From: Microgenomates group bacterium
GTDB lineage: Bacteria > Patescibacteriota > Microgenomatia > UBA1400 > PJMF01
Length of the DNA: 31,081 nt
Reading direction: 5' to 3'
Assembly: GCA_009776965.1 (NCBI GenBank)
Contig: WRMU01000001.1
Coordinates: forward strand, 1 to 31,081
The number at the start of each line of letters is the position of its first letter. Positions within the stretch are counted from its first letter, which is position 1. The notes below the pieces were generated by a model that was not told where the DNA came from, did no database searches, and saw only the letters and a list, made by a program, of their open reading frames with translations. This document shows positions 608 through 24,384 of the stretch, one piece after another. The position numbers and the translations under genes were made by a program.

Positions 608-616
608 TGATAAAAT
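608..616 (+). promoter_or_regulatory. Extended -10 element TGaTAAAAT, 7 nt before ATG 624
   Basis: TGA at 608-610, TAAAAT at 611-616, ATG at 624. Confidence 0.55.
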
Positions 617-623
617 GAATATC

Positions 624-1004
624 ATGACAAAAAAAGGTCAAGTCGGTCCATTTAGTTTATTCAAAAGTTTTCGCGCCGCTGCCGCTGGCTTAGGCCAAAC
701 CCTACGCACCGAACAAAACATGCGCTTTCATCTTCTAGCTACGGTCATCATTCTTGCTTGCGGCTGGTGGGTCCAGCTTAGTCCAGTTGAGTGGTCTTTG
801 ATCATTTTGTGTTGTGTTGCCGTCATGGGAGTGGAGTTACTAAATACTGCCATCGAATATCTCTGCGATATTGTCCGCGATAAAATGCGTCTCAACTATC
901 AGGCCACCAAAATCCCTCGGGATATGGCTGCTGCCGCTGTGTTGATTGTTTCCATGGGTGCCGCTGCTGTTGGCTTAATTATTTTTTTACCTAAGTTTTT
1001 TTAA
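624..1004 (+). CDS. dgkA: DgkA-family diacylglycerol/undecaprenol kinase (track start 615; 624 preferred)
   Basis: About 126 aa with three hydrophobic segments; EQNMRFH, ELLNTAIE and RDMAAAAVL match the prokaryotic DAGK motifs. Confidence 0.85.
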   Translation: MTKKGQVGPFSLFKSFRAAAAGLGQTLRTEQNMRFHLLATVIILACGWWVQLSPVEWSLIILCCVAVMGVELLNTAIEYLCDIVRDKMRLNYQATKIPRDMAAAAVLIVSMGAAAVGLIIFLPKFF

Positions 1005-1013
1005 TTTGCTCTT

Positions 1014-2390
1014 ATGTCTGGCTTTTCTAAAAAAATCAATAACTTCAAAGCCCTTAGCCAAGTTTCTCACAGTCTCCTCTCCCATCCCAAAAATGAGGAT
1101 TTAGTCCAAAACACTGTTGACACTATTCTCTTAGAGATTAATGCTCTGGGAGAAAAGTTTGATATGGCTTTAGTAGCTCTCGTCGATAAGGAAAGAAGGA
1201 ATCTGAGGCGAGTGGCCAGCTCCCAAACCAATCGTGTCGCCGAAAAACTAGTTAAATCCCTCAGGCATGAAGTGGGTATCAAAATCTCCGAAGTAGTCAC
1301 TCCCCTCACCCATAAAAAAAACCTTTCTGTTCTCTGCGTGGTTCAAGACAAAGTCTGTTTTTCTTATGATTTAGTGGATTTGATGTGTCCCCCTCTAACC
1401 CAAGAACAAGCTAGGGAGATTCAAAAAGCTGGCGGCTTAAAGACATTTTTTATCTTTCCCATTAAAATTGATGATCAAGTTATCGGCTGTTTGATTTTAA
1501 GCACTATGCGCAAACTCCATAAATTAGCTAATGAAGAACGCCAACTTATTGAAAGCCTGACTGATATCATTGGCATCGCCGTCCAAAACCAAAAGCTCTT
1601 TGCCCAAATTAAAGAAGATAAAAAAAGACTAGCTAAGGCCAACAGACAACTCCAAGCCCTCGATAAAACTAAAAATGATTTTATTTCTGTCGCCAGCCAT
1701 GAGTTGCGCACTCCCATGACAGCCATCAAAGGCTATGTCTATCTTCTCCAACAAACCGACAACTTGCCCGATAAAGCCACCCAACTCAAATACCTTCAAA
1801 CTTGCTATGATAGTGCCGATCGCCTCATCACCTTAGTTAACGACATGCTTTCTATTAGCAAGATCGAGGAGGAAGGTTTTGCTCTTTCCAAGGGTTGGAT
1901 CGACCTAGCTAGTATCATGCATAAAGCCTATGATGCAGTCGTTTCTATTGCCATCAGAAAAAAAATAAAGTTTACTCTCAATATTGCACGTGAACCACTC
2001 ATGATTGGCGCTGATGCCAAACTCCTCCACGAAGTAACCGCTAATTTTTTAAGCAATGCTCTAAAGTTTACCAATCGAGGAGGTGAAGTTGCTCTCAATT
2101 TAAGTATCATTAAGAAAGAAAATAAGGAGTTTGTCAGAGTCTCTGTTTCCGACACTGGAGTGGGCATTGCTAAAGAAAACGCCGACAAGATTTTCTCCAA
2201 GTTTACTCGCCTCGAAAAATCTTATGTCAAAACTAGCGATACCGGCACCGGCCTAGGGCTTTACTTTGCTCAGCGAGCCATTAAAAAACATGGTGGCGAG
2301 ATTTGGTTCGACAGCATCGCCGGCAAAGGTTCAACTTTTTATTTTCAACTACCCTTAAGCTCCACCCCTCCTCCTCCAGAAGAAGACTAA
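1014..2390 (+). CDS. Soluble GAF-domain sensor histidine kinase (GAF-HisKA-HATPase_c)
   Basis: H-box FISVASHELRTPMT, N-box NFLSNALKF, G1 DTGVGI, F-box IFSKF, G2 GTGLGL. GAF-like region (FPIKIDDQVIGCLIL...IGIAVQNQKLF). No transmembrane segment. Confidence 0.9.
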   Translation: MSGFSKKINNFKALSQVSHSLLSHPKNEDLVQNTVDTILLEINALGEKFDMALVALVDKERRNLRRVASSQTNRVAEKLVKSLRHEVGIKISEVVTPLTHKKNLSVLCVVQDKVCFSYDLVDLMCPPLTQEQAREIQKAGGLKTFFIFPIKIDDQVIGCLILSTMRKLHKLANEERQLIESLTDIIGIAVQNQKLFAQIKEDKKRLAKANRQLQALDKTKNDFISVASHELRTPMTAIKGYVYLLQQTDNLPDKATQLKYLQTCYDSADRLITLVNDMLSISKIEEEGFALSKGWIDLASIMHKAYDAVVSIAIRKKIKFTLNIAREPLMIGADAKLLHEVTANFLSNALKFTNRGGEVALNLSIIKKENKEFVRVSVSDTGVGIAKENADKIFSKFTRLEKSYVKTSDTGTGLGLYFAQRAIKKHGGEIWFDSIAGKGSTFYFQLPLSSTPPPPEED

Positions 2391-2402
2391 GTCCCTCACT
2401 TT

Positions 2403-3773
2403 TCAAGTCTTGATTATCAGGTTTTTGAACTCCTCATTCGTCAGCGGTGCGGCCTTTGTGCAGGCCACGTCATAAATCTTTTGTGCCTGCTCATCAGTCA
2501 AATCTAATCCCAAATCATATAGAGCCTTTAACTTAATGCCCTTTAATCCTGTCGCTGCCGAGACTACAATCTTCGGCTTTCGCCCCCATTCTGCTGTTCC
2601 CCATGGAGAATGAATAGCATTTTTCATGGTCGTCAACATTTTTTGAGCATCGCTCAGTTCTTTGATCAGCCTCTCCACTTTATATTCCGCCGCCAAATGT
2701 GTTCCAAAACAAGAGCTAAAGGCATTTCCTGCCAAAACTCCCATCTCTGGCACTTCTTCTCCAATTAGTTGTCCATAAGCCTTGCTTACCGCCCAAAGTT
2801 TTTGTGGTTCAAAAGGGACAGTTTCTCTGCTTCCTCTAAGCACATAATACAGATTTGCTGCCATCGCCTCCAGCGAACAGTTCCCTGCTCGCTCCCCATC
2901 ACCCCAAGGAGCAATTCCCACCATTTTGGCTCCATTAGCTAGCGCCACCAAAGCATTACTCACTGCCAATCCTCGATCATTATGATTATGGATTTTGATT
3001 ATCACCTCAGCTCGCTCTAAATCAGTCAGTATTTTTTGCACAAACTTGAATAGTCTGGCAGTGCCTCGCTCTCCCGCCACTCCCGCTGTATCAGTGATAA
3101 TTAAGGTTGTTAAATAAGCCCCTCCTGCCTCCGCCATAACTTCGATTATCTCTTTGATAAACCAAGGCGGAGTTTGGGTGGCGTGTTCAATAGTGCCATA
3201 AATCTCAATTTTATACTTCGCCGCTAATGCAAAGCTTTTTCTGATATCATTCTTTATCTGCTCCACCGTCCAGCCTTCGGCGAACATTCGCAAAGGAGCC
3301 GTTCCGCGGAAAATTGCCATCCCCGTATTCGGGTTAATCTTTTTACACTCCTTTCCCCATTCCACCGCCTCAACCATCGTTGGCGAGCCCAATACCGGAA
3401 CCATCTCCGGCATTTCTTCATGTAGTTGTGAGAGAATACTCTGTATCCGTTGATCCGTGATTGTTCCTCGCCCCGCATATAAACCAATCAAGCTCCGCCT
3501 GATCCCCAAAGCATAAATCGCTCGCAAATAATCCATAGCCTTATCTACATCAGGAACAATCTTCACTCTGCCTAATGCGTCTCGCAACCCCTCGTCCATC
3601 AATATCGTTTCACTCGCTTGTTTTGGTGTCGGCTCGGTTAAAATCTTTTTTTCTACCTCCGTTAACCCATCCTTATCCCGCTCATTATCCCAATCAAAAT
3701 TGTGTGGTAAAGTCTCGTCGTATAGCTCACTAATCTTGGCGAATAGTTCTTGCTTGACTTTCTGTGTACTCAT
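2403..3773 (-). CDS. DRE-TIM metallolyase, LeuA/homocitrate-synthase-like, lacking the regulatory domain; substrate unknown
   Basis: DEGLRD (DxTLRD), TIEHA (catalytic Glu), TDTAG, HNHNDRGLAVSNALVA (HxH metal site), GERAGNCSLE. About 55-aa N-terminal extension. Confidence 0.85.
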   Translation of the reverse strand: MSTQKVKQELFAKISELYDETLPHNFDWDNERDKDGLTEVEKKILTEPTPKQASETILMDEGLRDALGRVKIVPDVDKAMDYLRAIYALGIRRSLIGLYAGRGTITDQRIQSILSQLHEEMPEMVPVLGSPTMVEAVEWGKECKKINPNTGMAIFRGTAPLRMFAEGWTVEQIKNDIRKSFALAAKYKIEIYGTIEHATQTPPWFIKEIIEVMAEAGGAYLTTLIITDTAGVAGERGTARLFKFVQKILTDLERAEVIIKIHNHNDRGLAVSNALVALANGAKMVGIAPWGDGERAGNCSLEAMAANLYYVLRGSRETVPFEPQKLWAVSKAYGQLIGEEVPEMGVLAGNAFSSCFGTHLAAEYKVERLIKELSDAQKMLTTMKNAIHSPWGTAEWGRKPKIVVSAATGLKGIKLKALYDLGLDLTDEQAQKIYDVACTKAAPLTNEEFKNLIIKT

Positions 3774-3780
3774 CCGATAT

Positions 3781-3786
3781 ATTATA
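3781..3786 (-). promoter_or_regulatory. -10 TATAAT, 7 nt before the DRE-TIM ATG
   Basis: Plus-strand ATTATA at 3781-3786; start codon CAT at 3771-3773. Confidence 0.6.
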
Positions 3787-3811
3787 CACTACTATGCAAG
3801 TAAGCTCTAAA

Positions 3812-4972
3812 ATGTCCATCTTCCAAAGTAGTCAAGTAGATAAGGTCATGGCCCTCACTGAGGCGGCTAAAGCTGCTGGTAGGGATATTATTTCCCTAAA
3901 CATGGGTGTTCCTTTTTATCCTCTACTCCCAGAAATAGCCACTAAATTGGCCGCTAATCTCACTCGCCCCGACATTTCCTTCTACACTCCTTTTAACGGT
4001 CGATCCGACTTGCGCGCTAAATTAGCCGAGGTTTCTAGCCACAAAACTGGTCGAAAAGTTAGTCCAGAAGAAATCTCTGTTACTGTCGGTGCTATGGCCG
4101 GTCTTTTTAATGTTTTTCTCACCGTCCTCGACCAAAATGACGAAATCATCATCCCCGCTCCTTATTTTTATTCCTACCGCCAACAAGTAGAATTAGTCGG
4201 TGCCAAAGCCGTTGAAGTACCTCTAGAGCTTAACAGTCAGGGAGCTTACGAACTTCCTCTTGAGCGTATCAAAAAAGCGATTAATAAACATACTCGCGCT
4301 ATTCTCATCAACTCCCCCCATAACCCCACCGGTGCTATTTTTAGTGAGCAAAACCTGCGCGAACTAGCTGCCTTAGTGGCCGACAAAAAAATCTATGTTA
4401 TCACCGATGAGGTCTATGACTATCTTAGCTTCACCGGCAAAGAAGTATTTAATATTGCCTCCCTCTGGCGCGACTTAGATCCCTATCTAATTCGCTGCTA
4501 TTCCTTTTCTAAAATCTACGGTATTACCGGCTACCGGCTTGGCTACCTCCAAGCCGATAAAGCTCTTATCGACAAACTCTACGGCGTTAACATGGACACC
4601 GTCATCTGCGCTCCCACTATCGCTCAAGAGTTAGTCATGATTGCTCTCAGTGAGCCCGAGCTTCCTTCTCTCGCCAAACACATCAAAACTCTCACCGCCA
4701 ACCGCTCCCTCATGATGAAGGAGTTAGATCAAAGTCCTGAGCTTTTTTCCTATATTATTCCTCAGGGAACTTACTATATGTGGGTCAAATATCATTTGCC
4801 TATCTCCAGCTACCAGCTTACCAGAAGGCTGATTCAAAAAGAAGGTGTGGCCGTTTTCCCCGGTACTGGTTTTGGCGAGGCGGGAGAAGGTTTTATTCGT
4901 TTCTCTTTTGGCGGGCAAGCCGCTAAAGTCACCGAAGCCTTCGCTCGTTTACGTCAGTCAGGGTTAAAATAA
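3812..4972 (+). CDS. PLP-dependent aminotransferase class I/II (start uncertain: 3812 or 3794)
   Basis: INSPHNPTGA, VITDEVYD, SFSKIYGITGYRLGY (PLP Lys), FIRFSF. The track's GTG start at 3764 overlaps the divergent gene and is unlikely. Confidence 0.9.
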   Translation: MSIFQSSQVDKVMALTEAAKAAGRDIISLNMGVPFYPLLPEIATKLAANLTRPDISFYTPFNGRSDLRAKLAEVSSHKTGRKVSPEEISVTVGAMAGLFNVFLTVLDQNDEIIIPAPYFYSYRQQVELVGAKAVEVPLELNSQGAYELPLERIKKAINKHTRAILINSPHNPTGAIFSEQNLRELAALVADKKIYVITDEVYDYLSFTGKEVFNIASLWRDLDPYLIRCYSFSKIYGITGYRLGYLQADKALIDKLYGVNMDTVICAPTIAQELVMIALSEPELPSLAKHIKTLTANRSLMMKELDQSPELFSYIIPQGTYYMWVKYHLPISSYQLTRRLIQKEGVAVFPGTGFGEAGEGFIRFSFGGQAAKVTEAFARLRQSGLK

Positions 4973-5902
4973 CACATAGTTATTCCTCTCTAGTTTTACT
5001 TTGCATCCTAGCTCCAACTCCATCAGCTCAATTTGTAATTCTTCCACTCGAGCTCCCAATATCTTTTGTAGTTCATCGCTGGTCAATCCTTGTTTATACT
5101 TTTTAAGCAGCTCCCCAATCCGCCAGCCCAATTCGCTCACCTCCTCTCTTTTCCATCCCACCACTTTCTTCTTGGCCTCTCTTTTATCCTCAATTTTTAA
5201 CACCTTTGGTATCCCGATCACTCGTCCTCGATAGGTTCGGCCAGTAATTTCTTGCTTAATATCTTCTCCAGAGCTGACCAATAGCGCTCCTTGGTTTAAT
5301 AAGTTTTTTGTTCCTTCGGCAAACTTATTAAAAATACCCCCAGAAACTGCCATCACCTCCCTCCCACATTCTCCAGCTAATCTGGCAGTCACCAAGCTTC
5401 CGCTCTGCGCCGCTGCTTCCACCACCACCACCGCCTTACTCAAACCCGCTACAATTCTATTTCTCTGCAAAAAAGTCCATGGTTGAGGGAAAACTTCCGG
5501 TGGATATTCACTCACCAACACCAAGTTTCCTCTCCTAATCCATTTTTTAGCCAATTGCTCATGTGTCGAAGGAAAAAAGTTATTCACCCCAAATCCCAAT
5601 ACTCCGATACTTTCTCCTCCGCCTTCCATCGCCGCCACTTGTGCTTCTGTGTCTATTCCATACATCAGCCCCGACACCACTACCACTCCTAGCCCCGCTA
5701 ATTCGCCCGCAATTTTTCTCGCCGCTCTCTGCCCATATTCTGTCATCATCCTCGCTCCCACCATGGCTACTGGCCAAGGTCGCTGCAAAATCTCCTCTCT
5801 GCCATAGACATAAATCTTCGCCGGAGGGTCTTTAATCTCTCGGAGTAGAGCGGGATAATTTTTCTGCTCGAATCTAATAATTGTGGGTTGTATATCAAAC
5901 AT
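4964..5902 (-). CDS. dprA: DNA-processing protein DprA, with C-terminal winged helix and no N-terminal SAM domain
   Basis: YPALLREIKDPP, VAMVGAR, VSGLMYGID, FLQRNRIVAGLS, VVEAAAQSGSLVTA. Confidence 0.92.
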   Translation of the reverse strand: MFDIQPTIIRFEQKNYPALLREIKDPPAKIYVYGREEILQRPWPVAMVGARMMTEYGQRAARKIAGELAGLGVVVVSGLMYGIDTEAQVAAMEGGGESIGVLGFGVNNFFPSTHEQLAKKWIRRGNLVLVSEYPPEVFPQPWTFLQRNRIVAGLSKAVVVVEAAAQSGSLVTARLAGECGREVMAVSGGIFNKFAEGTKNLLNQGALLVSSGEDIKQEITGRTYRGRVIGIPKVLKIEDKREAKKKVVGWKREEVSELGWRIGELLKKYKQGLTSDELQKILGARVEELQIELMELELGCKVKLERNNYVLF

Positions 5903-5915
5903 AGAGTTTTTCCAT
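5895..5915 (-). other. 6-codon upstream ORF (MEKLYV*) overlapping the dprA start codon
   Basis: ATG 5915-5913, GAA AAA CTC TAT GTT, TGA 5897-5895; the ATG lies 7 nt after TATGAT. Confidence 0.4.
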
Positions 5916-5922
5916 TAACCCT

Positions 5923-5928
5923 ATCATA
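5923..5928 (-). promoter_or_regulatory. -10 TATGAT upstream of dprA
   Basis: Plus-strand ATCATA at 5923-5928. Confidence 0.55.
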
Positions 5929-5937
5929 CCCACAAAA

Positions 5938-5968: not shown

Positions 5969-6415
5969 TCACACTTGCGCCAACAAGGCTATCGTTTCTC
6001 CCCACTGCTCCGCTCCTGCCTTTTCCTTAGCTTGAGTAATCTTCTCTAGTACCCCAGCATCTTGTGCATGCATTTTTTCTAGTCCTGACATCCTCTCCCA
6101 AGCCAAATCTTTCTTCAACTTCAGTGCTTTTTCCACTAGTATCCGCTCTAAGTCGGGGATCACTTCCATCAAAAAAGCCTCCATTTCCGCCTGCTTTTCC
6201 TCATCGCTGATCTCCATTTTTTTAATTACGTCAGTCAATTTCACCAATTCTTCTTCGGTCAATAGCAATTCCACATCATTATCCAAAAAATCATCCCAAA
6301 CCGCCTTATTTAGCCGCTCTAAAAAGTTTTCTTTTTCCTCATCAGTCAGAGACTCTGCTCCCAGCAGAGTAAAGACATTTTGTTGTTCCAGAGATTGGGC
6401 AGTTTCTTCTTGCAT
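5969..6415 (-). CDS. Acidic helical hypothetical protein (possibly DUF5663-like); start 6415 preferred over track 6433
   Basis: 148 aa, E/D/K-rich. NVFTLLGAESLTDEEKENFLERL resembles small CPR proteins as recalled (unverified). The track's MLYH N-terminus is the translated -10 box. Confidence 0.7.
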   Translation of the reverse strand: MQEETAQSLEQQNVFTLLGAESLTDEEKENFLERLNKAVWDDFLDNDVELLLTEEELVKLTDVIKKMEISDEEKQAEMEAFLMEVIPDLERILVEKALKLKKDLAWERMSGLEKMHAQDAGVLEKITQAKEKAGAEQWGETIALLAQV

Positions 6416-6421
6416 ACTATC

Positions 6422-6447
6422 ATGATATAGCATTTTTTTGGTATAAT
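6422..6447. promoter_or_regulatory. Back-to-back bidirectional promoter: minus TATCAT (6427-6422) and plus TGgTATAAT (6439-6447)
   Basis: Boxes lie 6 nt from ATG 6415 (-) and 7 nt from ATG 6455 (+). Confidence 0.6.
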
Positions 6448-6454
6448 CAACCCC

Positions 6455-8572
6455 ATGTTCAAAAAGATTATTTTTGGTCTATTCACTGTCCTGCTTACCG
6501 TCGTTCCTTTTTTATTCACTTGGTTTAACACCGAGCTCTTTGAACTACCCAAAATGACTGCCGTTTATCTGCTCGCCGTGGCTCTAGCCGCCACTTGGCT
6601 ACTCGATATGGTTGTCAATCGTCGTATAATTTTCCGCCCCACCCCTCTCGACTTGCCCATTCTCCTGTTTTTGCTCTCCCAAATCATTTCCACCATCCTT
6701 TCCCTCCATCCTCCCACCAGCCTTTTTGGTTATTATGGGCGTTTTAATGGCGGTTTGCTTTCCATCATTTCTTATATCATTATTTTTTATACCGCCGTCA
6801 ACTATCTCACAAAAGCCGACTTCTTCCGCCTCCTGCGCGCCTCTCTCGTCTCCGCCGCCCTAATTAGCCTCTGGGGGGTACTTGAACATTTCGGCCACTC
6901 TTTTTCTTGCCTGCTAGTAAATCAAGAACGTGTTCTCTCTGGAGCTGCTTCCATCGGCGAAGTCTTTAACGTCGATTGTTGGGTACAAGACGTACAAGCT
7001 CGCGTCTATGCTTCCTTTGGCCAACCCAACTGGCTCGCTGTCTATCTCATCACTCTCATCCCCCTCAATCTTCATTTTATCATCCAAGACACCAAGCAGA
7101 AAAAATATCGCTCCCTCGCTTTCCTTTGGGTAACCGCCGTTCTTATGCCTTGTGCTCTATTTTTTACTTATTCACGCTCCGGCGTTTTGGGCTTATTAGT
7201 TTCTCTATTTTTTTTCCTCATCGGTTTAATCTTTATCCATCGCTCGCCCAAAAAAGCTTTTTCTCCTCCAGTAATTATTTTTATTTTTACCGCCATCGTC
7301 TTAGCCTTCCTTTGTCGAGCCACCTATCTAAGCGACTTAGCTTCTCCCGTTGGAGCTCAGGAACAATCAGAGCTAATTGTTCGTAACGAAATCACCGATT
7401 CTGCCGACATTCGCCTTATTGTTTGGCGAGGCGCCCTAGATGTTTGGAAAAGATACCCTCTTTTTGGGTCTGGGGTCGAAACTTTCGCTTATAGCTACTA
7501 TTTAGATCGTCCCGTGGAGCACAACTATACCTCCGAATGGGATTTTCTCTATAACAAAGCCCATAATGAGCTGCTTAATTATCTGGCCACCACTGGACTC
7601 TTTGGTCTCCTAACCTATCTTTCAATTTGGAGTGTGTTTGGCTATTTACTTCTTAAAGCCCTTCTCAATTCTCATCTCGAGTCTGCCGACAAGACTGTTA
7701 TTACCGCCCTTGGAGCTGGCCTCACTGCCATGTTCATGGCCAACTTCTTCGGTTTTTCCACCGTCGTCAGCAATGTTTTAGTTTTTCTATTTTTAGCCGG
7801 CTTAATTATTATCACCCAGACCCCAATTCCCCAAAAAACCAAGAAGGCAAAAACGTTAGTCTTTTGGCAATATGCTGCTTTCGCCATTATCGCCGCCAGC
7901 TCTCTCTCCTGCCTTCATCGCCTAGGCAACTTCTATCTGGCCGATTATAATTACCGCCTCGGAGAGACCTACATTAATCTTCGTCAGGTCGAAGCCGGTC
8001 TCACCAAAATCCATCAAGCTCTCAAATTAAATCCCCTTCTTGATACCGCCTACAATGAGCTAGCTAATATTTATGCTCAAATAGCTGTTTCCTATGCTAA
8101 ACAAGAAGCCCAGCCAGAGCAAATTGCTCCCTTTATCGCTCGCGCAGAAACCTCTCTAGACAGCTCTCTTACCCTCAATTCCCATCATATCACCTCCCTT
8201 AAAAACGCCGCCCGTGCTTATACCACTCTCGCTCAAATCGACCTCAGCTACCTTACCAAAGCCCAAGATGTTTACTCCCACGCGCTAAAGTTAGCCCCCC
8301 ACGACCCCAAGCTCAATTACAATTTGGCCATCCTTTTCTATAATACCAACCGTCGCGATGAAGGCAAAGAGCTTTTAGAAACCATCACCACCTACCTCAA
8401 GCCTAACTATCTAGAAGCTCGCCTTTTTCTCGCTTCCCGAGCCATTGAGGATGAAGATTTTGCTTTGGCCCAAAAAAATTATCAGTATATCCTAGACCAT
8501 CTCGATCCCACTAATGAACAAGCCTTAACCAATATAGTTATTATCGCCACCATGAGTGCCCAACAAAATTGA
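6455..8572 (+). CDS. O-antigen ligase/Wzy_C-family polytopic membrane protein with C-terminal TPR-like repeats (putative oligosaccharyltransferase)
   Basis: Many TM helices; ASFGQPNWLA, TYSRSG, RLIVWRGALDVWKRYPLFGSGVETF, KAHNELL. C-terminal helical repeats (ALKLNPLLDTAYNELA, ALKLAPHDPKLNYNLA). Confidence 0.8.
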   Translation: MFKKIIFGLFTVLLTVVPFLFTWFNTELFELPKMTAVYLLAVALAATWLLDMVVNRRIIFRPTPLDLPILLFLLSQIISTILSLHPPTSLFGYYGRFNGGLLSIISYIIIFYTAVNYLTKADFFRLLRASLVSAALISLWGVLEHFGHSFSCLLVNQERVLSGAASIGEVFNVDCWVQDVQARVYASFGQPNWLAVYLITLIPLNLHFIIQDTKQKKYRSLAFLWVTAVLMPCALFFTYSRSGVLGLLVSLFFFLIGLIFIHRSPKKAFSPPVIIFIFTAIVLAFLCRATYLSDLASPVGAQEQSELIVRNEITDSADIRLIVWRGALDVWKRYPLFGSGVETFAYSYYLDRPVEHNYTSEWDFLYNKAHNELLNYLATTGLFGLLTYLSIWSVFGYLLLKALLNSHLESADKTVITALGAGLTAMFMANFFGFSTVVSNVLVFLFLAGLIIITQTPIPQKTKKAKTLVFWQYAAFAIIAASSLSCLHRLGNFYLADYNYRLGETYINLRQVEAGLTKIHQALKLNPLLDTAYNELANIYAQIAVSYAKQEAQPEQIAPFIARAETSLDSSLTLNSHHITSLKNAARAYTTLAQIDLSYLTKAQDVYSHALKLAPHDPKLNYNLAILFYNTNRRDEGKELLETITTYLKPNYLEARLFLASRAIEDEDFALAQKNYQYILDHLDPTNEQALTNIVIIATMSAQQN

Positions 8573-10110: not shown

Positions 10111-10127
10111 TCTCTTTCTGCCATAAT
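10099..10127 (+). promoter_or_regulatory. Sigma70-type promoter TTGACT-N17-CATAAT (with TGn) for rpmB
   Basis: TTGACT 10099-10104, TG 10119-10120, CATAAT 10122-10127, ATG 10138. Confidence 0.7.
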
Positions 10128-10353: not shown

Positions 10354-10362
10354 TGCTACAAT
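10354..10362 (+). promoter_or_regulatory. Extended -10 TGcTACAAT, 6 nt before ATG 10369
   Basis: Seen directly; the track's MCYN N-terminus is the translation of this box. Confidence 0.65.
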
Positions 10363-10368
10363 AAGCTC

Positions 10369-11136
10369 ATGATCTCAGTTGTTTTAGCCACTCATAATGA
10401 GGAAAAGAACCTTCCTTCATGCCTAGATTCCATTAAAGATTTTGCTGACGAAATTATCATTGCCGATGGTGAATCCTCAGACCAAACTCTCTCCATCGCC
10501 AAAAAATATGGCGCTAAAACTGTCAAAACCACCAATAAACCCAACTTTCATATCAATAAACAACTTGCCATTGATGCTGCCAAAGGTGACTTAATCCTCC
10601 AGCTTGATGCTGACGAACATGTCGATAGCGAACTCAAAAAGTTCATTGTCACCATCCACCAAACTGCCGACCATACTTACTCTGCTTGGTGGCTAAAACG
10701 CCAAAACTTCTTTCTAGGCCGCTGGATGAAGCGCGGTGGCCTTTATCCCGATCCCGTCATTCGCCTTTTCTGGCGCGGCGAAGCTTGGCTGCCTCAAAAA
10801 GATGTTCATGAGCAGATGGCGGTTAAAAATGATAATGTCGGTTGGGCTTTCGGCCACCTCCTCCATTTTTCCTATCCCGTTTTTGATTCTTATATCACCA
10901 AGTTCAACACTTACACCACCTTCAAAGCTCTCCAGCTAAAAGAAGCCCGCTTAAAACGCAGCTGGCATGTCGCCCTCAGCTATATTCTTTTCAAACCTTG
11001 GGGAACTTTTTTCCTTATGTATGTTCGCCACCGCGGTTTCCGCGATGGTTTAGCTGGATTTATTTTTGCCTTGGGTTCCAGCTGGCATCATCCTATCGCT
11101 TATCTCAAGTATTGTGAAATGACCAAAAAAAAGTAA
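10369..11136 (+). CDS. Glycosyltransferase family 2 (WaaE/KdtX-like beta-glycosyltransferase)
   Basis: ISVVLATHNEE, IIADGESSDQT, LQLDADE (DxD), LYPDPVIRLF, VHEQ. Confidence 0.88.
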   Translation: MISVVLATHNEEKNLPSCLDSIKDFADEIIIADGESSDQTLSIAKKYGAKTVKTTNKPNFHINKQLAIDAAKGDLILQLDADEHVDSELKKFIVTIHQTADHTYSAWWLKRQNFFLGRWMKRGGLYPDPVIRLFWRGEAWLPQKDVHEQMAVKNDNVGWAFGHLLHFSYPVFDSYITKFNTYTTFKALQLKEARLKRSWHVALSYILFKPWGTFFLMYVRHRGFRDGLAGFIFALGSSWHHPIAYLKYCEMTKKK

Positions 11137-11219: not shown

Positions 11220-11302
11220 TGCCTCAGGCGAGACTCGAACTCGCATGCTATTGCTAGCGGCAGATTTTAAGTCTGCTGTGTCTACCATTCCACCACCAAG
11301 GC
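11220..11302 (-). tRNA. tRNA-Leu(UAA), long variable arm; CCA not encoded
   Basis: Reverse complement GCCTTGG...CTGAGGC+A; anticodon arm GCAGA-CTTAAAA-TCTGC; variable arm GCTAGCAATAGC; T-loop GTTCGAGT. Confidence 0.95.
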
Positions 11303-11323
11303 CTCTCGAAAAAGAACTGGTAA

Positions 11324-11346
11324 ATTATAACAAAAAATGCTAGAAT
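11324..11346. promoter_or_regulatory. Overlapping bidirectional promoter: minus TGtTATAAT (11332-11324, tRNAs) and plus TGcTAGAAT (11338-11346, efp)
   Basis: Both extended -10 boxes are seen directly; efp ATG 11355 is 8 nt downstream; flanked by CTGGTA/TACCAG symmetry (11317-11322 and 11348-11353). Confidence 0.65.
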
Positions 11347-11354
11347 ATACCAGT

Positions 11355-11921
11355 ATGGCCACAGTCAACGGCGGAAATCTCAAAAAAGGTATGTATATTG
11401 ACTTTCGTAGTCAACCTCATCAAGTCACCATGACTCAGTTCGTCTCGCCCGGCAAGGGTAGCGCCTTCACTCGAGCTAAATTACGCAACCTTAAAACTAA
11501 TAATACCATCGAGTTCACCTTCAAAACTACCGAAATGATCGAAATCCTCGACATCGGCTCGCGCGAGCTAGTTTTTTCGTATGTTGATGCCGACGAAGTA
11601 TGGTTTATGGATGAGCGCACCTTTGAGCAATATGCAGTCGACAAAAAACTCATTAGTGATCAGCTTGGTTTTCTCGTCCCCGACCTCAAGGTTTATATCC
11701 TATTTTACGACGAAAAACCCATCGGCGTCAGTTTCCCCCCTAAAGTTAAAATGAAAGTGCAAGAAGCTCCTGAGGCCATCGCTGGTGACCGCGTTAATGC
11801 CGGCAAAAAACCCGTCACCATGGAGACTGGCCTCACTGTCCAAGCTCCCTTATTTGTCAAAACTGGAGATACTCTCATCATCGAAACCGACTCCGGCCAG
11901 TATGTTTCTAGGGCAAATTAA
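11355..11921 (+). CDS. efp: Elongation factor P (start 11355 preferred)
   Basis: LKKGMYI, VSPGKGSAFTRAKLRNL, FMDERTFEQ, KPVTMETGLTVQAPLFV, TDSGQYVSR. Confidence 0.95.
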   Translation: MATVNGGNLKKGMYIDFRSQPHQVTMTQFVSPGKGSAFTRAKLRNLKTNNTIEFTFKTTEMIEILDIGSRELVFSYVDADEVWFMDERTFEQYAVDKKLISDQLGFLVPDLKVYILFYDEKPIGVSFPPKVKMKVQEAPEAIAGDRVNAGKKPVTMETGLTVQAPLFVKTGDTLIIETDSGQYVSRAN

Positions 11922-12640
11922 CCCCAATACTCCGGATATTGATCAATAAAAGACTGCCTTTGCCCCGTTTTCGCATCGGCAATAAACGGCCTAAAAGTCT
12001 GCATCTTTTCATCACTATGCTTACTCACCATGTTCATCAACTTTTTCACATAATTCTCTAAATCTTCGGCATTTTTAATTCGAATAAAATAAAAAGACTT
12101 TTTATTCACTCGCTCTATTCCTTTTTGGGCATCTTCTGTCGACACCCCAGAACTATTAGCTCCTGATCGCGCCTCAAAACTGCCCACTCCCAGTATTCGG
12201 TCCATAGGAGTTCGCGTTTGACTCTGGGTATCCACTATATTCTTAACCGGTAAAGTTTGTCTGATATTATTAATTGGATTAATTTGGATCAACTTTATCA
12301 AATGATAATTAGTCACTATGCCCAAAGTTCGCTTCCAAGTAAAACGCAGCCAACTCAAGATCAACAAGGTGATAATTATGACCAATACTCCTATGGCCCC
12401 CAAAATCAGCTTTGCCTTCACTCCCAAATCATCCAACATTCTATTTAGCAACGCTATCACCACTAAAGCTACTATCCCCACCAACATTGCCCCAATTTGG
12501 CGCAAATAAAGCATTATTTTTGCTTCTCTAGCGATATACAAGATCTTCTCCTCGCTTTGCTGGCCGCTAAAACGATACTTAAAAGGAAACACAAACTCAT
12601 TCACCTCAAACACATTCTCCAAAGACAACAACTCGCTCAT
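11918..12640 (-). CDS. Membrane protein with bacterial PH-like (bPH_2) domain
   Basis: RFSGQQSEEKILY, two TM helices, then IVTNYHLI...IVDT...ILGVGSF pattern, recalled from CPR PH-domain proteins. Confidence 0.6.
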   Translation of the reverse strand: MSELLSLENVFEVNEFVFPFKYRFSGQQSEEKILYIAREAKIMLYLRQIGAMLVGIVALVVIALLNRMLDDLGVKAKLILGAIGVLVIIITLLILSWLRFTWKRTLGIVTNYHLIKLIQINPINNIRQTLPVKNIVDTQSQTRTPMDRILGVGSFEARSGANSSGVSTEDAQKGIERVNKKSFYFIRIKNAEDLENYVKKLMNMVSKHSDEKMQTFRPFIADAKTGQRQSFIDQYPEYWG

Positions 12641-12648
12641 ATAGAGAT

Positions 12649-12657
12649 ATTATAACA
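12649..12657 (-). promoter_or_regulatory. Extended -10 TGtTATAAT, 8 nt before ATG 12640
   Basis: Plus-strand ATTATAACA at 12649-12657. Confidence 0.65.
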
Positions 12658-12997: not shown

Positions 12998-13031
12998 GGG
13001 CAAGTCTTTCTATTTAATTTGCTCAAACTTC

Positions 13032-13060: not shown

Positions 13061-13859
13061 GTAGTTGAATGTCAATCGGTGCGTGATCACTCCCCATCAC
13101 CTCGCTTAAAATATTCGCCTCTTTCAAATAAGGCGCCAAACTAGCGCTCAACCAAAAATAATCAATCCGCCAACCCACATTCCTCTCTCTCGCCCTAGTT
13201 TTATAATCCCACCAACTGTACCCACCCTTTTCTTCTGGATGCAGATAACGCCAGCTATCAATAAATCCTCTGCTCAAAAACTCACTTATCCATGCTCGCT
13301 CCATTAACAAAAACCCCGTATTTTTGCTATTCTCTTTCGGTCTAGCCAAATCAATCTCCTCATGTGCCGTATTTACATCCCCACAAATAATAATATCAGC
13401 ATAATCTTTTTTCTTCTCCGCCACTGCCCTCTCAAAAGCGCCATAATAATTCATTTTATATTGCAGCCTCTCCTCGCTCATTCCGCCATTAGGAAAATAA
13501 CAATTAATAAATAACACCTTTTCTCCTCGACAGATAAACTCTCCTGCGCATATCCTTCCCTCCGCATTTAATAATCTCTTGTCCTCCTCATTTTTTGCCG
13601 ACAATCCATCCCAAAACTTAAATTGCGTTTTCTCCCAAAAATCCTTTTTCACTAATAGCATCGTCCCCGAATAACCCTTTTTTTCCGCCGCCCGCCATCG
13701 CCACTCATACTCATTTTGCAATACTAGTGGCATCTCTGGATTATCGACTTTAATTTCCTGCAGGGCAATTATATCCGCTCCACTCTTAAGCAGAAACTCA
13801 ATACCTCCCTTCCTGCTAATCGCTCGCCACCCATTAACGTTCCAACTTAAAAACTTCAT
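13053..13859 (-). CDS. xth: Exodeoxyribonuclease III / AP endonuclease
   Basis: SWNVNG, LQEIK, GYSGT, YFPNG, GDVNTAH, FIDSWR, WRIDYF, SDHAP. Confidence 0.93.
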   Translation of the reverse strand: MKFLSWNVNGWRAISRKGGIEFLLKSGADIIALQEIKVDNPEMPLVLQNEYEWRWRAAEKKGYSGTMLLVKKDFWEKTQFKFWDGLSAKNEEDKRLLNAEGRICAGEFICRGEKVLFINCYFPNGGMSEERLQYKMNYYGAFERAVAEKKKDYADIIICGDVNTAHEEIDLARPKENSKNTGFLLMERAWISEFLSRGFIDSWRYLHPEEKGGYSWWDYKTRARERNVGWRIDYFWLSASLAPYLKEANILSEVMGSDHAPIDIQLLA

Positions 13860-14844: not shown

Positions 14845-17153
<2,309 letters not shown>

Positions 17154-19067: not shown

Positions 19068-19070
19068 TGT

Positions 19071-19559: not shown

Positions 19560-19577
19560 ATTACTCCTTTCTTTCCC

Positions 19578-19805: not shown

Positions 19806-19844
19806 AAATACCTTTCTGTTTATATTACTTTTTTTAATTAATAA

Positions 19845-20600
19845 TTACTTTTTATTTTTTACTACTGCCACCTCTTTTTCTTCTCCCATCGCTTGTCCCA
19901 AATAAACCGTGGCTAACGATGCGAATACTAAGGCTTGAACCACACAAGTGAGCATGCTCAAAAACGTAAATGGGATGGGCAGAATAAAAGGAGCTAAAAA
20001 CATCATCACTGCTGTCAATACCTCGCCCGCAAATAAATTGCCGAATAAGCGAAAAGACAAAGACAGGGCCTTAGCCAGCTCACCAACAATATTCATCAGC
20101 CCTAACACAAAATTAATCGGGCTAGAAAAATCAAACCATTGTTTCATATAAGGCTTAATTCCCTGATATGTGATAAACAAAACCTGCACTAGCCCTACCA
20201 CCAGCAAAGTTAACACTAACACTTGTCCGTAATCAGCCAATGCTGTGCGGAAAATAGGGACTTCTCCTTGCTCTCTGCGCAGCGAGAAAGCACTTAAAGC
20301 TGGCATTAAGCTGAATAAATTACAAAACAAAATATAAAAGAACAGCGTAATTACTAAAGGGAAAAGTTTTTTGGTTTTGTCGCGACTTCCGGTCATCATA
20401 CTTACACTATTCAACATCCATTCCACCACCATTTCCACTGCCACCTGTAATTTGTTAGGTATCAACTGCCATTTTTTCATCACTCCTAATATCATTCCCA
20501 ACAACAGCAAAGTCACCACCATCTGCCAAAAAAAAGAATTGGTTACCCCGAAGCCAAAAATGGTAAACAAAACTTCTGGCGACAGCGATATATTAATCAT
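19845..20600 (-). CDS. atpB: Fo a subunit
   Basis: P..LQVAVE, SLSFRLFGNLFAGE (essential Arg), VQALVFASL..Y. Confidence 0.97.
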   Translation of the reverse strand: MINISLSPEVLFTIFGFGVTNSFFWQMVVTLLLLGMILGVMKKWQLIPNKLQVAVEMVVEWMLNSVSMMTGSRDKTKKLFPLVITLFFYILFCNLFSLMPALSAFSLRREQGEVPIFRTALADYGQVLVLTLLVVGLVQVLFITYQGIKPYMKQWFDFSSPINFVLGLMNIVGELAKALSLSFRLFGNLFAGEVLTAVMMFLAPFILPIPFTFLSMLTCVVQALVFASLATVYLGQAMGEEKEVAVVKNKK

Positions 20601-20836
20601 TTCTTAGCGGTTTCATCCACCTTTCTTTTTGCAAATACCGAAATAATCAACGTAGTGGTTAAAAAAGCAGCCACTATCCCAGCTGCCAAAAACAAAGCAT
20701 TATTAAAAACAGAGTGTAACCAAAAACCCAATCCTCCCAAAACCAATAGAGGTAACAAAGTAACCTTCATACTAAAAAGACGAGCTTCTTTGCGGACTTG
20801 GTTCATGGCGTCTATAGCCTCTGCCTGTGTTTTCAT
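20597..20836 (-). CDS. AtpZ/AtpI-like two-TM protein (start 20836 preferred)
   Basis: First in the operon, ATGA overlap with atpB, two TM helices. The track start (20884) lies upstream of the promoter. Confidence 0.65.
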   Translation of the reverse strand: MKTQAEAIDAMNQVRKEARLFSMKVTLLPLLVLGGLGFWLHSVFNNALFLAAGIVAAFLTTTLIISVFAKRKVDETAKK

Positions 20837-20851
20837 AAAAACCCAACGCGG

Positions 20852-20880
20852 ATTATATAGTACCTCCCCTCCTCTGTCAA
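20852..20880 (-). promoter_or_regulatory. Perfect consensus sigma70 promoter TTGACA-N17-TATAAT of the atp operon
   Basis: Plus-strand TGTCAA at 20875-20880, ATTATA at 20852-20857, 17-nt spacer. Confidence 0.85.
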
Positions 20881-20895
20881 TCATTGATTGACAGA
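20873..20895. repeat. Perfect 23-bp palindrome TCTGTCAATCA-T-TGATTGACAGA over the atp -35
   Basis: 11-bp arms around a 1-nt centre, seen directly. Confidence 0.9.
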
Positions 20896-20896
20896 T

Positions 20897-23191
20897 TTAG
20901 CGTCTCGGCCTAAAAGGACGGCCGCTACCATTGGGTCGGCCATTGCCATTAGGCCTACTACCTCTAAATCCGCTTTGTTGTCTTGGAGGTCGGGCGTTTC
21001 TACTAGCCGCAACTTCTTCTTCTTGCTCTAAAGTCAGCATCGACAGCTTAATCTTCCCATCATCCTGAATCCCCGACACTCTGATATGTACTTTATCGCC
21101 CAGCTTAACTATGTCGCTAGCATCACGCACATAATCAGTACTCATCGCCGACACATGGATCAAACCTTCCTGACTGGGGAGATACTCCGCAAAAGCGCCA
21201 TAACTCTCCACTCGTGTCACCACTGCTTCATATTCCTCTCCCACTGCCGCCTCGTGCATCATTCCCGCAATATACTTCACACATCTCTCGATCGCTTCCA
21301 GATCCGTGCCCGAAACATTAACATTGCCCACCTGTTTTTCTTCATCCTCATCCACATCAATTTGCACTTCAAACTGTTCAATCAGTCTCTTAATGTTTTT
21401 ACCCCCTGGGCCAATCAATTCTCCAATCTTCCCCGCTGGAATTACTAACTGTTGAATCTTAGGCGCATATACGGACAACTCTTTTCTTGGCTCACTAATT
21501 ATCTCCAGCATTTTATCTAAAATAAACAATCTCGCTGTTTTAGCCTTGGCCAATGCTTCTGTCAAGATTTTAGTAGAAATACCCTTCACCTTAATATCCA
21601 TCTGCAAAGCGGTAATGCCCTGCGCGCTGCCTGCCACTTTGAAATCCATATCTCCGCAATGGTCTTCCACATCTTTAATATCCGACAAAATCTGATATTT
21701 AGTTGAACCGTCGGCGATTGCCTCAGCAGCCACCAAACCCATCGCAATTCCTGCCACCGGTCGCCTGATGGGTACTCCCGCCGCCATCAGCGACAAAGTT
21801 GATCCACACACCGCTGCCTGCGATGTTGAACCATTAGAGCTCAGAATCTCGCTCACCACGTGAATGGTATAAGGAAACTCCTCATGAGCAGGCAACATCG
21901 GCAATAAAGCCCTCTGAGCTAGCGCTCCATGCCCAATTTCGCGTCTTTTCGGCGATCCTAATCTTCCTGCATCGCCGGAAGCAAAAGGGGGCATATTGTA
22001 GTGATGCATATAATGATGCACTTCTTCACCGCCCATATCTTCCACATATTGCCCCAAAGCCGGTGGTGCCAAAGTGGTAATTGTCACTGCTTGAGTTGCT
22101 CCGCGCTTAAACATCGCGCTTCCATGAGTTCTCGGGAAAATATCCACCTCACAAATAATAGGCCTGATTTCATCGACCTTTCTCCCATCAGGACGTTGTC
22201 CATCTTCCAGAATCATCTCTCGCACCGCCTCATGAATTAGTTCCGACAACACATTATTAATATCCGCATTATTAATTTCTTGTACTTCTTCCTCAGTAGG
22301 TATAGTTTGCGCTAGCTTCTCTTGGATTTTCTCCAAAACCTGCTCTTTTTCTTTGCTCAAGTCCACCGCCTCGAATCTAGCTTCTTTCTCCACCACCTCT
22401 CTCACATCCATTACTTCCCTCAAGAAAGGCTCAATGATTGCTCTTTTAGCCGCAAAACTTTCCGTATTGTCCTCCCAGACAATCTTTTCTCTACCAATCT
22501 CTGCAGCAATTTTAGTAAATTGCTGACAAATGTCGCTAATAGTTTTTTGCGCCAAATCGAGAGCCTTGACCATCACTTCTTCGCTCACCTCGTTCCCTCC
22601 TGCTTCCACCATCGCAATTGCCTTAGCCGTTCCTCCCACAATCAAATCTAAATCAGATGTTTCTCTCTCCTCCTCAGTAGGGTTGAGAATAAACTCATCA
22701 GTGTTTTTATAATAGCCCACTCGCAAGCCCGCCATTGGCCCGTCAAAGGGAATATCACTCAAGGTCATCGCCAAACCAGTGGCCAGCATCCCTACCACCC
22801 CGTCATCATTCTGTTTATCATAAGAAAAAACCGTATTTACCACCTGCACTTCACGCATAAAACCTTCAGGAAACAAAGGTCTAATGGTCCTGTCAATCAC
22901 TCGCGATTTCAAAATTGCCTCGTCGGTTGGCCTTCCGTCTCTTTTCACCCACCTAGAACCCTTAATAATTCCTCCCGCATATAACTTTTCCGCAAAATCC
23001 ACGCTTAAAGGAAAATAGCCCAAATTAGACACACTCCCCATCGCTGCCGTGGTATGCACCACCGTATCCCCACATTGCGCCAAGACTGCTGCACTGGCTT
23101 GTTCCGAGAACTTGCCAATAGTCATCTTAACCTCTTTTTCACCCACTTTAATAGTAGTCACATATTCATGACCAAAAACTGGATATGACAT
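20897..23191 (-). CDS. pnp: Polyribonucleotide nucleotidyltransferase (start 23191 preferred)
   Basis: FPLSVDF, DRTIRPLFP, RTHGSAMFKRGATQ, RREIGHG, SNGSTS, GDMDFKVAG, KH (IGELIGPGG), S1 (GLIHVS), and an R/G/P-rich tail. Confidence 0.97.
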   Translation of the reverse strand: MSYPVFGHEYVTTIKVGEKEVKMTIGKFSEQASAAVLAQCGDTVVHTTAAMGSVSNLGYFPLSVDFAEKLYAGGIIKGSRWVKRDGRPTDEAILKSRVIDRTIRPLFPEGFMREVQVVNTVFSYDKQNDDGVVGMLATGLAMTLSDIPFDGPMAGLRVGYYKNTDEFILNPTEEERETSDLDLIVGGTAKAIAMVEAGGNEVSEEVMVKALDLAQKTISDICQQFTKIAAEIGREKIVWEDNTESFAAKRAIIEPFLREVMDVREVVEKEARFEAVDLSKEKEQVLEKIQEKLAQTIPTEEEVQEINNADINNVLSELIHEAVREMILEDGQRPDGRKVDEIRPIICEVDIFPRTHGSAMFKRGATQAVTITTLAPPALGQYVEDMGGEEVHHYMHHYNMPPFASGDAGRLGSPKRREIGHGALAQRALLPMLPAHEEFPYTIHVVSEILSSNGSTSQAAVCGSTLSLMAAGVPIRRPVAGIAMGLVAAEAIADGSTKYQILSDIKDVEDHCGDMDFKVAGSAQGITALQMDIKVKGISTKILTEALAKAKTARLFILDKMLEIISEPRKELSVYAPKIQQLVIPAGKIGELIGPGGKNIKRLIEQFEVQIDVDEDEEKQVGNVNVSGTDLEAIERCVKYIAGMMHEAAVGEEYEAVVTRVESYGAFAEYLPSQEGLIHVSAMSTDYVRDASDIVKLGDKVHIRVSGIQDDGKIKLSMLTLEQEEEVAASRNARPPRQQSGFRGSRPNGNGRPNGSGRPFRPRR

Positions 23192-23218
23192 AAAATCTTT
23201 CTTCAAAGCGCCAAGAAA

Positions 23219-23298
23219 ACTGTTGGTGAGTGCTATACAAGAATTAACAAATATCCTGTCCTAAGCTTATTAACTCTTGAGAACTCTCACTAAACAGT
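23219..23298 (-). promoter_or_regulatory. About 29-bp imperfect stem-loop in the pnp 5' leader
   Basis: Arms 23219-23247 and 23270-23298 are imperfect reverse complements; two mismatches resolve as G-U on the minus (transcribed) strand. Confidence 0.7.
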
Positions 23299-23341
23299 GC
23301 TGATCTTTTTGCTTTCTATTTATTTTTTACTAATCGACCAC

Positions 23342-23350
23342 ATTATACCA
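23342..23350 (-). promoter_or_regulatory. Extended -10 TGgTATAAT of pnp (about 145-nt leader)
   Basis: Plus-strand ATTATACCA at 23342-23350. Confidence 0.65.
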
Positions 23351-23357
23351 TACTTAA

Positions 23358-23396
23358 AAAAAACTTTCTCTATTAATTTTATAGAGAAAGTTTTTT
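23358..23396. repeat. Perfect 16-bp inverted repeat with 7-nt spacer between the pnp and uxs promoters
   Basis: AAAAAACTTTCTCTAT (23358-23373) and ATAGAGAAAGTTTTTT (23381-23396). Confidence 0.9.
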
Positions 23397-23404
23397 AAGA
23401 GAAA

Positions 23405-23413
23405 TGTTATAAT
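23405..23413 (+). promoter_or_regulatory. Extended -10 TGtTATAAT, 8 nt before ATG 23422
   Basis: Seen directly. Confidence 0.7.
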
Positions 23414-23421
23414 AGAAAAAT

Positions 23422-24384
23422 ATGCACTACTACCAAAACAAAACAATTTTAGTCACCGGAGCAGCAGGTTTTATTGGCAGCCATTTAGTCCACTCTCTCC
23501 TGCAAGCAGGCGCCAAAGTAATCGGCGTAGACAATTTTATCTCCAGCGAAACTAGCAACAAAAATCTCCAAGACGTTTTAGACCATCAAAACTTTAATTT
23601 TGAGTTCGGCGATGCAGCCTCAGATCCCCACCTCTATTTACCTCAAGGAGTTAAAATTGATGCAATTTTCCATTTTGCTTCGCCGGCCAGTCCTCCAATC
23701 TACCAAAAATATCCCGTAGAAACTTATCTGGTGAACAGTTTAGGCACTCATCACTTGGCGTTTTGGCTTAAAAAACACAATCCTCAGGGAAGATTGCTCT
23801 TTGCCAGTACTTCGGAGGTTTATGGTAACCCTCTCGAACACCCCCAGAAAGAAAGTTATTGGGGAAATGTTAATCCCAACGGAGTGCGCAGTTGTTATGA
23901 TGAAAGCAAGAGGATGGGGGAGACGGTATGCGGAGTATTCTATCGAGATTTTGGTTTAGACACCAGACTAGTAAGGATTTTTAATACCTATGGCCCGAGC
24001 ATGAACCCTAATGACGGACGAATTATCCCTCAATTCATCCAGCAAGCTCAGGAGAATATACCTCTAACTGTTTATGGCGATGGCAGCCAAACTAGGAGTT
24101 ATTGTTATGTGGATGATTTGGTGCGGGGGCTGCTGTTATTTATGGCCAAAGATGAACTTAAGGGAGAAACTATAAATCTGGGCAACCCCGAGGAATATAC
24201 AGTATTGGAGACAGCCCGAATCTTCAACGAATTGGCAGGTAGGGACAAAGATATGATTGAGTTTAGACCCCTGCCTAGTGACGATCCGGTCAAGAGAAAA
24301 CCAGATATTAGTAAAGCGAAAAAGCTGCTAGGCTGGGAGCCAGAAGTTGCCTTTAGAGAAGGGTTGACACGATGTCTGGAATAA
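23422..24384 (+). CDS. UDP-glucuronate decarboxylase (UDP-xylose synthase)-like extended SDR
   Basis: TGAAGFIG, ASPASP..Y, ASTSEVYG, YWGNVNP.GVRSCYDESKR, RIFNTYGP, DDP..RKPDI. Confidence 0.88.
   Translation: MHYYQNKTILVTGAAGFIGSHLVHSLLQAGAKVIGVDNFISSETSNKNLQDVLDHQNFNFEFGDAASDPHLYLPQGVKIDAIFHFASPASPPIYQKYPVETYLVNSLGTHHLAFWLKKHNPQGRLLFASTSEVYGNPLEHPQKESYWGNVNPNGVRSCYDESKRMGETVCGVFYRDFGLDTRLVRIFNTYGPSMNPNDGRIIPQFIQQAQENIPLTVYGDGSQTRSYCYVDDLVRGLLLFMAKDELKGETINLGNPEEYTVLETARIFNELAGRDKDMIEFRPLPSDDPVKRKPDISKAKKLLGWEPEVAFREGLTRCLE

Follow-up and report, generated by a model that had tools for sequence, protein, structure and literature searches.

Leaderless transcription has been shown experimentally in Mycobacterium, Corynebacterium, Streptomyces and Deinococcus deserti (cited in PMC6028130). 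The closest described genome type is 'group C' of the program GeneMarkS-2, in which a Pribnow box lies 6-8 nt from the first genes in operons, in 25-50% of the transcription units (PMC6028130). Internal genes of these genomes keep Shine-Dalgarno (SD)-type sites, and the anti-SD sequence is retained (Lomsadze et al. 2018, PMC6028130). Group C comprises 90% of the genomes of Actinobacteria and 97% of those of Deinococcus-Thermus (PMC6028130). Here we analysed contig 1 (WRMU01000001.1) of assembly GCA_009776965.1, from an uncultured and ultra-small Microgenomates group bacterium belonging to the Patescibacteria, or Candidate Phyla Radiation (CPR). This whole stretch of 31,081 nucleotides, hereafter called the window, bears the F-type ATP synthase operon, pnp, efp, dprA, rpmB and 2 tRNA genes. 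The sequences nearest to its atpD come from Patescibacteria assemblies with a mixture of labels within the phylum. A preliminary description of its sequence had pointed to -10 boxes lying just before start codons, and had proposed that most of its transcription units start at or within 2 nt of the AUG. The mechanism is well known in other bacteria, and the phylum is new to it as far as our literature search found. That search yielded no published description of leaderless genes in CPR/Patescibacteria, including Saccharibacteria, TM7x, Microgenomates, Parcubacteria and Gracilibacteria; the nearest report concerns a part of the Parcubacteria devoid of the anti-SD motif (PMC9297842).

About a third of all genes in this genome have a -10 box 6-10 nt before the ATG, and the feature is real, strong and genome-wide. 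The assembly comprises 709 kb in 65 contigs, is 86% complete and has a G+C content of 46%. Searched without gene calls for TAnAAT followed by an ATG opening at least 100 codons, it gave 67, 45, 34, 35 and 24 cases at spacers of 6, 7, 8, 9 and 10 nt (N6 to N10), against about 6 cases at each of the other spacings between 0 and 30 nt, where the distribution is flat. The total for N6-10 is 205, compared with approximately 30 expected. For the analyses based on genes we used a simple caller of our own, which yielded 640 genes (90% coding), and operon heads were defined in the same home-made manner. A position weight matrix (PWM) of the box was learned from the TAnAAT+ATG sites of the genome itself, and the starts of boxed genes were picked with its help. 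A PWM match was present 5-10 nt before a candidate start in 193-216 of 637 genes, but before only 3-10 of 486 decoy in-frame starts. Among these matches, spacers of 3-5 nt were absent; those of 6 nt numbered 64, and the count then decreased to 22 at 10 nt, so that the genome-wide positional count proposed in the preliminary description revealed a sharp excess at 6-10 nt.

Chance could in principle create such a layout, as intergenic DNA is A/T-rich and ORF finders are biased by in-frame TAA or TAG within the box. This bias exists, and starts taken as the 'first ATG' inflate N6 relative to N7-8. We note that the histogram obtained without gene calls consists of a flat background plus a peak of five positions, and that decoy starts carry a box in at most 2% of cases. 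Composition-preserving shuffling of the 40 nt that precede each first ATG led to the same result. TAnnnT was found at N6-8 before the first ATG of 166 of 592 genes, compared with 56.9 ± 7.2 in shuffled sequences, and none of 300 shuffles reached the observed number; in the window the corresponding values were 8 of 29 genes against 3.0 ± 1.5. The motif is thus more frequent than in shuffled controls, as the preliminary description required. We also counted the pattern TGNTATAAT at N6-8 before ATG and compared it with the same pattern at N13-15. This control spacing, together with Firmicutes genomes, replaced a control with the pattern read backward, which was uninformative owing to the enrichment of the promoter box as such. 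In four genomes of Firmicutes, which use this box too, the counts were 76 against 75 (1.0-fold), i.e. no excess. The chance explanation was rejected on the basis of the shuffles, the decoys, the histogram and the Firmicutes controls, and we consider its probability to be close to nil.

A second alternative is that the promoters are real but that the true gene starts lie further downstream, behind ordinary leaders, the adjacent ATGs being incidental. It draws some strength from the choice of starts with the help of the PWM, from the many proteins that have no family to anchor their N-terminus, and from ATG5915 of the window, a box-adjacent ATG that is no gene start (see below). Against it, of the 551 strong boxes in the genome 189 lie next to a long ORF and only 30 next to a short one, the latter being the chance level, and the excess described above concerns ORFs of at least 100 codons. 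The codon itself is also selective: boxed genes start with 169 ATG, 11 GTG and 2 TTG (n = 182; 93% ATG), whereas the pool of candidates contains about one third of each. Such a preference for AUG is expected of leaderless translation. The sharp cut-off at 6 nt is left unexplained by incidental ATGs, and the protein profiles of efp, a glycosyltransferase, an epimerase and an aminotransferase align to the box-adjacent ATGs. We regard starts further downstream as improbable. A T at position -1 was tried as a signature of the start site and discarded as evidence, as it lacks specificity: it occurs in 61% of the boxed genes and in 54% of the others.

The nature of the box was deduced from its sequence context and from genes that are not translated. 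Sites picked only by TAnAAT+ATG showed T, R, T and G in 61%, 75%, 74% and 61% of cases at positions -5 to -2, giving the consensus TRTGnTAtAAT, with only a faint TTG 17 nt further upstream, i.e. a weak -35 element. The TG one base upstream of TAtAAT and the use of the box by stable RNA genes as well as protein genes are those of an extended -10 promoter of the sigma-70/sigma-A type. PWM scores of at least 9 were found within 150 nt upstream of 38 of the 41 tRNA genes, where about 2.4 would be expected; therefore the box is a transcription signal and not a translation signal. In many tRNA genes the -10 hexamer lies 8-20 nt before the mature 5' end (8-9 nt in six of them), which implies tRNA 5' leaders of about 2-13 nt. 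RNase P RNA is present in a reduced form of 253 nt (78.9 bits, below the gathering score of the family).

These observations bear on a third alternative, which takes the TATAAT-like element for an A/T-rich ribosome-binding site of the non-SD kind, such as that of 'group B' of GeneMarkS-2, on mRNAs that start further upstream. Its distance to the ATG is the same as that of a ribosome-binding site, and the genome encodes a short S1 homologue. However, the element also precedes the untranslated tRNA genes, and its TG/TRTG extension is typical of a contact with the sigma factor. A motif of group B would be expected at internal genes too (PMC6028130), whereas tightly coupled internal genes seldom have the box and use AGAAAGGA in its place. 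The occurrence at first and internal genes alike that characterizes group B, of the Bacteroidetes type, was not found. This explanation appears to us very improbable.

Boxes and ribosome-binding sites exclude each other. In genes without box, GAAAG, AAAGG and AAGGA are enriched 5-7 fold; boxed genes show no enrichment. The unboxed genes carry a AGAAAGGA ribosome-binding site, complementary to the 3' end of the 16S rRNA, whose tail is GATCACCTCCTTTCT, so that the anti-SD is intact. The 16S rRNA gene itself is split over two contigs, the end of C41 and the start of C43 (genome G000, L001-L004). Positions 755-869 of the 16S model are matched twice, as the piece at C43:18-160 overlaps the C41 part, which points to a break in the assembly or to an insertion within this gene. 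The sole gene for an S1-like ribosomal protein is short (G000:C21:401-1429, an ORF of 376 aa) and matches positions 7-342 of the 516-position rpsA profile, which corresponds to approximately 4 S1 domains, as in low-GC Gram-positives.

The layout is concentrated at the heads of transcription units. It is present at 45-46% of the divergent or short-gap heads (30-46% across divergent and gapped heads) and at 11% of the genes located at most 10 nt behind an upstream gene. A strong -10 box lies at 6-10 nt in 163 (46%) of 357 candidate heads; in 69 the nearest one is at 11-200 nt, and 124 lack a strong box within 200 nt. Among the heads whose strong promoter could be detected, 70% have the 6-10 nt layout.

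In all these respects the genome resembles group C: the Pribnow box lies 6-10 nt before first genes, internal genes have a ribosome-binding site in place of the box with the anti-SD present, and the 46% of heads, counted on our own gene and operon calls, falls within the 25-50% range. It is unlike the known members in belonging to the Patescibacteria/CPR, and its start sites are predicted ones. Its box is the full, Firmicutes-like TRTGnTATAAT in a genome of 46% G+C, whereas high-GC Actinobacteria have a degenerate TAnnnT. The internal ribosome-binding site, AGAAAGGA, is shifted toward the extreme 3' end of the 16S rRNA, unlike that of group C. Promoters of Firmicutes sigma-A are of the extended -10 (TRTGn) type. 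The box described here has the same sequence and the same weak dependence on a -35 element, but in Firmicutes it has no preference for the position 6-8 nt before the ATG, and Firmicutes mRNAs are leadered. The archaeal leaderless genomes (group D of GeneMarkS-2) share the absence of a 5' UTR and the initiation at a 5'-terminal AUG; their promoter, unlike the -10 hexamer at 6-8 nt found here, consists of a TATA box located some 26 nt upstream (PMC6028130).

The observed motif, its spacing rule, its identity as a promoter, the mutual exclusion of box and ribosome-binding site, the preference for ATG and the spread through the phylum (see below) are very likely explained best by a leaderless-type architecture. 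In this architecture the housekeeping sigma factor would recognize extended -10 promoters of consensus TRTGnTAtAAT with a weak -35, situated 6-8 nt (up to 10) before the ATG at about a third of the genes and close to half of the transcription-unit heads. In a survey of 49 bacteria, the -10 element was found 7 bp upstream of the start site (PMC12641261). With this distance, +1 coincides with the A of the ATG when the spacer is 6 nt long, and shorter spacers would remove the start codon from the transcript. The first transcribed nucleotide would be this A or one located 1-4 nt ahead of it; such an mRNA would lack an SD, and the ribosome would initiate on the 5'-terminal AUG. Downstream cistrons and leadered genes would rely on a AGAAAGGA-type site pairing with the intact 16S 3' end, CCUCCUUUCU. 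The mRNAs of boxed genes thus very probably begin at the start codon, without a ribosome-binding leader. A start at or within 2 nt of the AUG, as put forward in the preliminary description, is what the usual 7-bp distance between box and start site would predict.

Several points weigh against this leaderless reading. The 124 of 357 heads without a strong -10 box within 200 nt make the true leaderless share uncertain, and the N9-10 spacings (about 28% of the cases) imply leaders of 2-4 nt, which is not strictly zero. The starts of boxed genes, chosen with the PWM, are partly circular, though the decoy rate does not exceed 2%. The assembly is incomplete, with 86% completeness in 65 contigs. One of the sites listed in the preliminary description (ATG5915) is not a gene start, and two of the listed boxes are weak. 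A search for sequencing runs that contain this sequence returned neither RNA nor DNA data. Finally, both the start of transcription and the mode of ribosome recruitment are inferred from sequence.

All nine box/spacer/ATG strings of the preliminary description are present in the window, and eight of these nine sites hold as described. None of the nine contains an SD motif or has room for one, in agreement with that description. Strong extended -10 boxes (PWM 10-14, N6-8) precede seven of the ATGs, all candidates for leaderless starts. On the forward strand, TGaTAAAAT (608..626; hexamer 611-616; PWM 13.6) is separated by N7 from ATG624, which opens a diacylglycerol-kinase-like gene (Pfam DAGK_prokar) followed by a histidine kinase gene; the in-frame ATG615 falls within this -10 box. 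TGgTATAAT (6439..6457; hexamer 6442-6447; PWM 13.2) lies N7 before ATG6455, the start of a 705-aa membrane/TPR protein at the head of three genes. TGcTACAAT (10354..10371; hexamer 10357-10362; PWM 12.1) lies N6 before ATG10369, the putative start of a family-2 glycosyltransferase, whose residues 2-107 align to profile positions 1-107. TGcTAGAAT (11338..11357; hexamer 11341-11346; PWM 10.1) lies N8 before ATG11355 of efp, and residues 4-188 of the EF-P encoded from this ATG align to positions 3-187 of the 187-position profile. TGtTATAAT (23405..23424; hexamer 23408-23413; PWM 13.4) lies N8 before ATG23422, the head of two genes, which encodes a NAD-dependent sugar epimerase/dehydratase with a Rossmann profile starting from residue 9. 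The reverse strand has TGtTATAAT (12638..12657; hexamer 12654-12649; PWM 13.7), N8 before ATG12640 of a 240-aa protein with no family assigned, and TATAAT (3771..3789; hexamer 3786-3781; PWM 10.2), N7 before ATG3773 of a gene with a family match to isopropylmalate/homocitrate synthase.

The latter gene is divergent from an aminotransferase gene that has a box of its own, absent from the preliminary description: TATTAT (3780-3785; weak PWM), N8 before ATG3794 on the forward strand (3780..3796). Positions 1-3 of several aminotransferase profiles align to residue 10-11 of the ORF that begins at GTG3764, and ATG3794 is likely the true start. The two divergent start codons are just 20 nt apart, and their hexamers, 3781-3786 and 3780-3785, overlap nearly fully; because of this overlap the two promoters could not be occupied simultaneously.

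Two further listed strings are present with weak boxes (PWM < 7). TATCAT (6413..6427, reverse strand; hexamer 6427-6422) lies N6 before ATG6415 and is a weak candidate; the 148-aa protein encoded there gave no family match in profile and Pfam searches. The other, TATGAT (5913..5928, reverse strand; hexamer 5928-5923), lies N7 before ATG5915, which had been taken as the start of a gene. This ATG opens a 6-codon mini-ORF (MEKLYV-stop) in a frame different from that of dprA, and its TGA overlaps the dprA start region ATGTTTGA. dprA begins at ATG5902, 13 nt downstream of ATG5915: the DprA profile matches the ORF of ATG5902 from residue 7, and the 312-aa product is on record as called. No SD precedes dprA, and its leader would be about 13 nt (5900-5928, reverse strand). 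Expression of dprA could involve termination-reinitiation coupling from a leaderless mini-ORF, or this gene could merely have a 13-nt leader. As a recurrent device, a leaderless mini-ORF coupled to a downstream gene was rejected, as the whole genome contains only 6 loose candidates and short ORFs next to a box do not exceed the chance level. With the exception of the dprA site, the sequence evidence supports the leaderless reading given in the preliminary description.

The N10 spacing reported for rpmB was also found: CATAAT (10122-10127) precedes ATG10138 (10122..10140, forward strand; Pfam Ribosomal_L28). This box has TTGACT 17 nt upstream, and the predicted leader of the L28 mRNA is 0-4 nt. 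The proposal that the N-termini MCYN, MLEY and MLYH are translated boxes proved correct. They arise from TTG10351 for the glycosyltransferase gene, from ATG11337 for efp and from ATG6433, the ORF-finder start in the box region of the ATG6415 gene. About 15 protein-coding units of the window can be assessed, of which 7 have a strong box, 2 a weak one (6415 and 3794) and rpmB the N10 box. The view that most units of the window are leaderless thus stands only if the weak sites are counted, as the strong ones alone amount to 7 of approximately 15.

Other boxes of the window lie further from their genes. TTTGTTATAAT (11302..11332, reverse strand; hexamer 11329-11324; PWM 13.0) lies 21 nt ahead of the 5' end of the mature tRNA-Leu and serves the tRNA-Leu/tRNA-Pro unit, an internal positive control for the identity of the box as a promoter. 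The strongest box of the window, TATGGTATAAT (23206..23350, reverse strand; hexamer 23347-23342; PWM 16.2), precedes the pnp ORF by 135 nt; pnp, with its 135-nt leader, is a counter-example. The gene at 13003, with a box 28 nt upstream and AGAAAG, is leadered as well. The PWM scan of the window gave no strong box before the atp operon or the helicase gene at 27497, and the atp operon is probably leadered. Strong promoter-like boxes (PWM 9-14) also occur within or antisense to genes, at 14967 and 7079 on the reverse strand and at 13202, 18002 and 29113 on the forward strand, the one at 14967 falling within the atpD region. These could represent internal or antisense promoters, or matches due to chance.

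Strand asymmetry is extreme in all contigs, with a median absolute GC skew of 0.27 per contig and -0.28 in the window. The skew affects the genes of both strands (-0.20 and -0.32, measured on the forward strand). It resembles the G/C disparity reported for Ch65, from the Microgenomatia order UBA1400 (PMC7143001), and gives a hint of a UBA1400-like lineage. In G026, a complete genome of the same order, the GC skew is 0.2-0.26 over 400 kb, and in 2 genomes of other classes it is about 0.1.

The same layout was found in relatives. With the TGNTATAAT pattern, the counts at N6-8 and N13-15 were 56 and 8 in the genome itself, and 672 and 164 in 40 genomes of the same family or order, with the former higher in 37 of the 40. 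In 100 genomes sampled evenly across Patescibacteria (about 78 families) they were 1118 and 305 (3.7-fold), the former being higher in 88 of the 100. All these counts indicate the breadth of the layout and not its rate, since related genomes are not independent of each other and the strict pattern covers only a single class of promoters. The ORF-anchored histogram showed the same peak in 400 kb of G026 (75 against 2.0 per position) and in G060, a complete genome from another class (70 against 7.4); in G095 the peak was only weak (22 against 2.7). The efp starts were anchored by protein alignment in 29 relatives, and in about 13 of them a -10 box lies 7-10 nt ahead of the ATG so aligned. Other efp orthologues have the box 20-30 nt upstream, followed by AAAGGA, and the same gene therefore switches between the two forms. 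As a wider proposal, to which we give an even chance of being right as a whole, leaderless initiation at a box-adjacent ATG would be phylum-wide and probably the ancestral default for unit heads of Patescibacteria. Individual genes would repeatedly change between the leaderless form and one with a short SD leader, as seen for efp among relatives; very short tRNA leaders would accompany this organization, and ORF finders tuned to SD sites would systematically place the gene starts of CPR assemblies too far upstream.

The last point has practical consequences. An in-frame start codon is present further upstream of 87 of 215 box-adjacent starts (about 40%), often within the promoter box, and callers that take the longest ORF or are trained on SD sites therefore add false N-terminal residues to many CPR proteins. 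Such false N-termini affect signal-peptide calls, structure prediction and family alignments. The rule TRTGnTATAAT-N6-8-ATG provides a simple predictor of both promoter and start for such genomes. For about half of its transcription units, a large phylum that is uncultivated and has reduced ribosomes appears to use initiation at a 5'-terminal AUG, and alongside it an SD-like system is kept for internal cistrons. The lineages rich in leaderless genes would thereby extend beyond Actinobacteria and Deinococcus-Thermus, and a concrete expectation follows for Saccharibacteria in culture and for metatranscriptomes.

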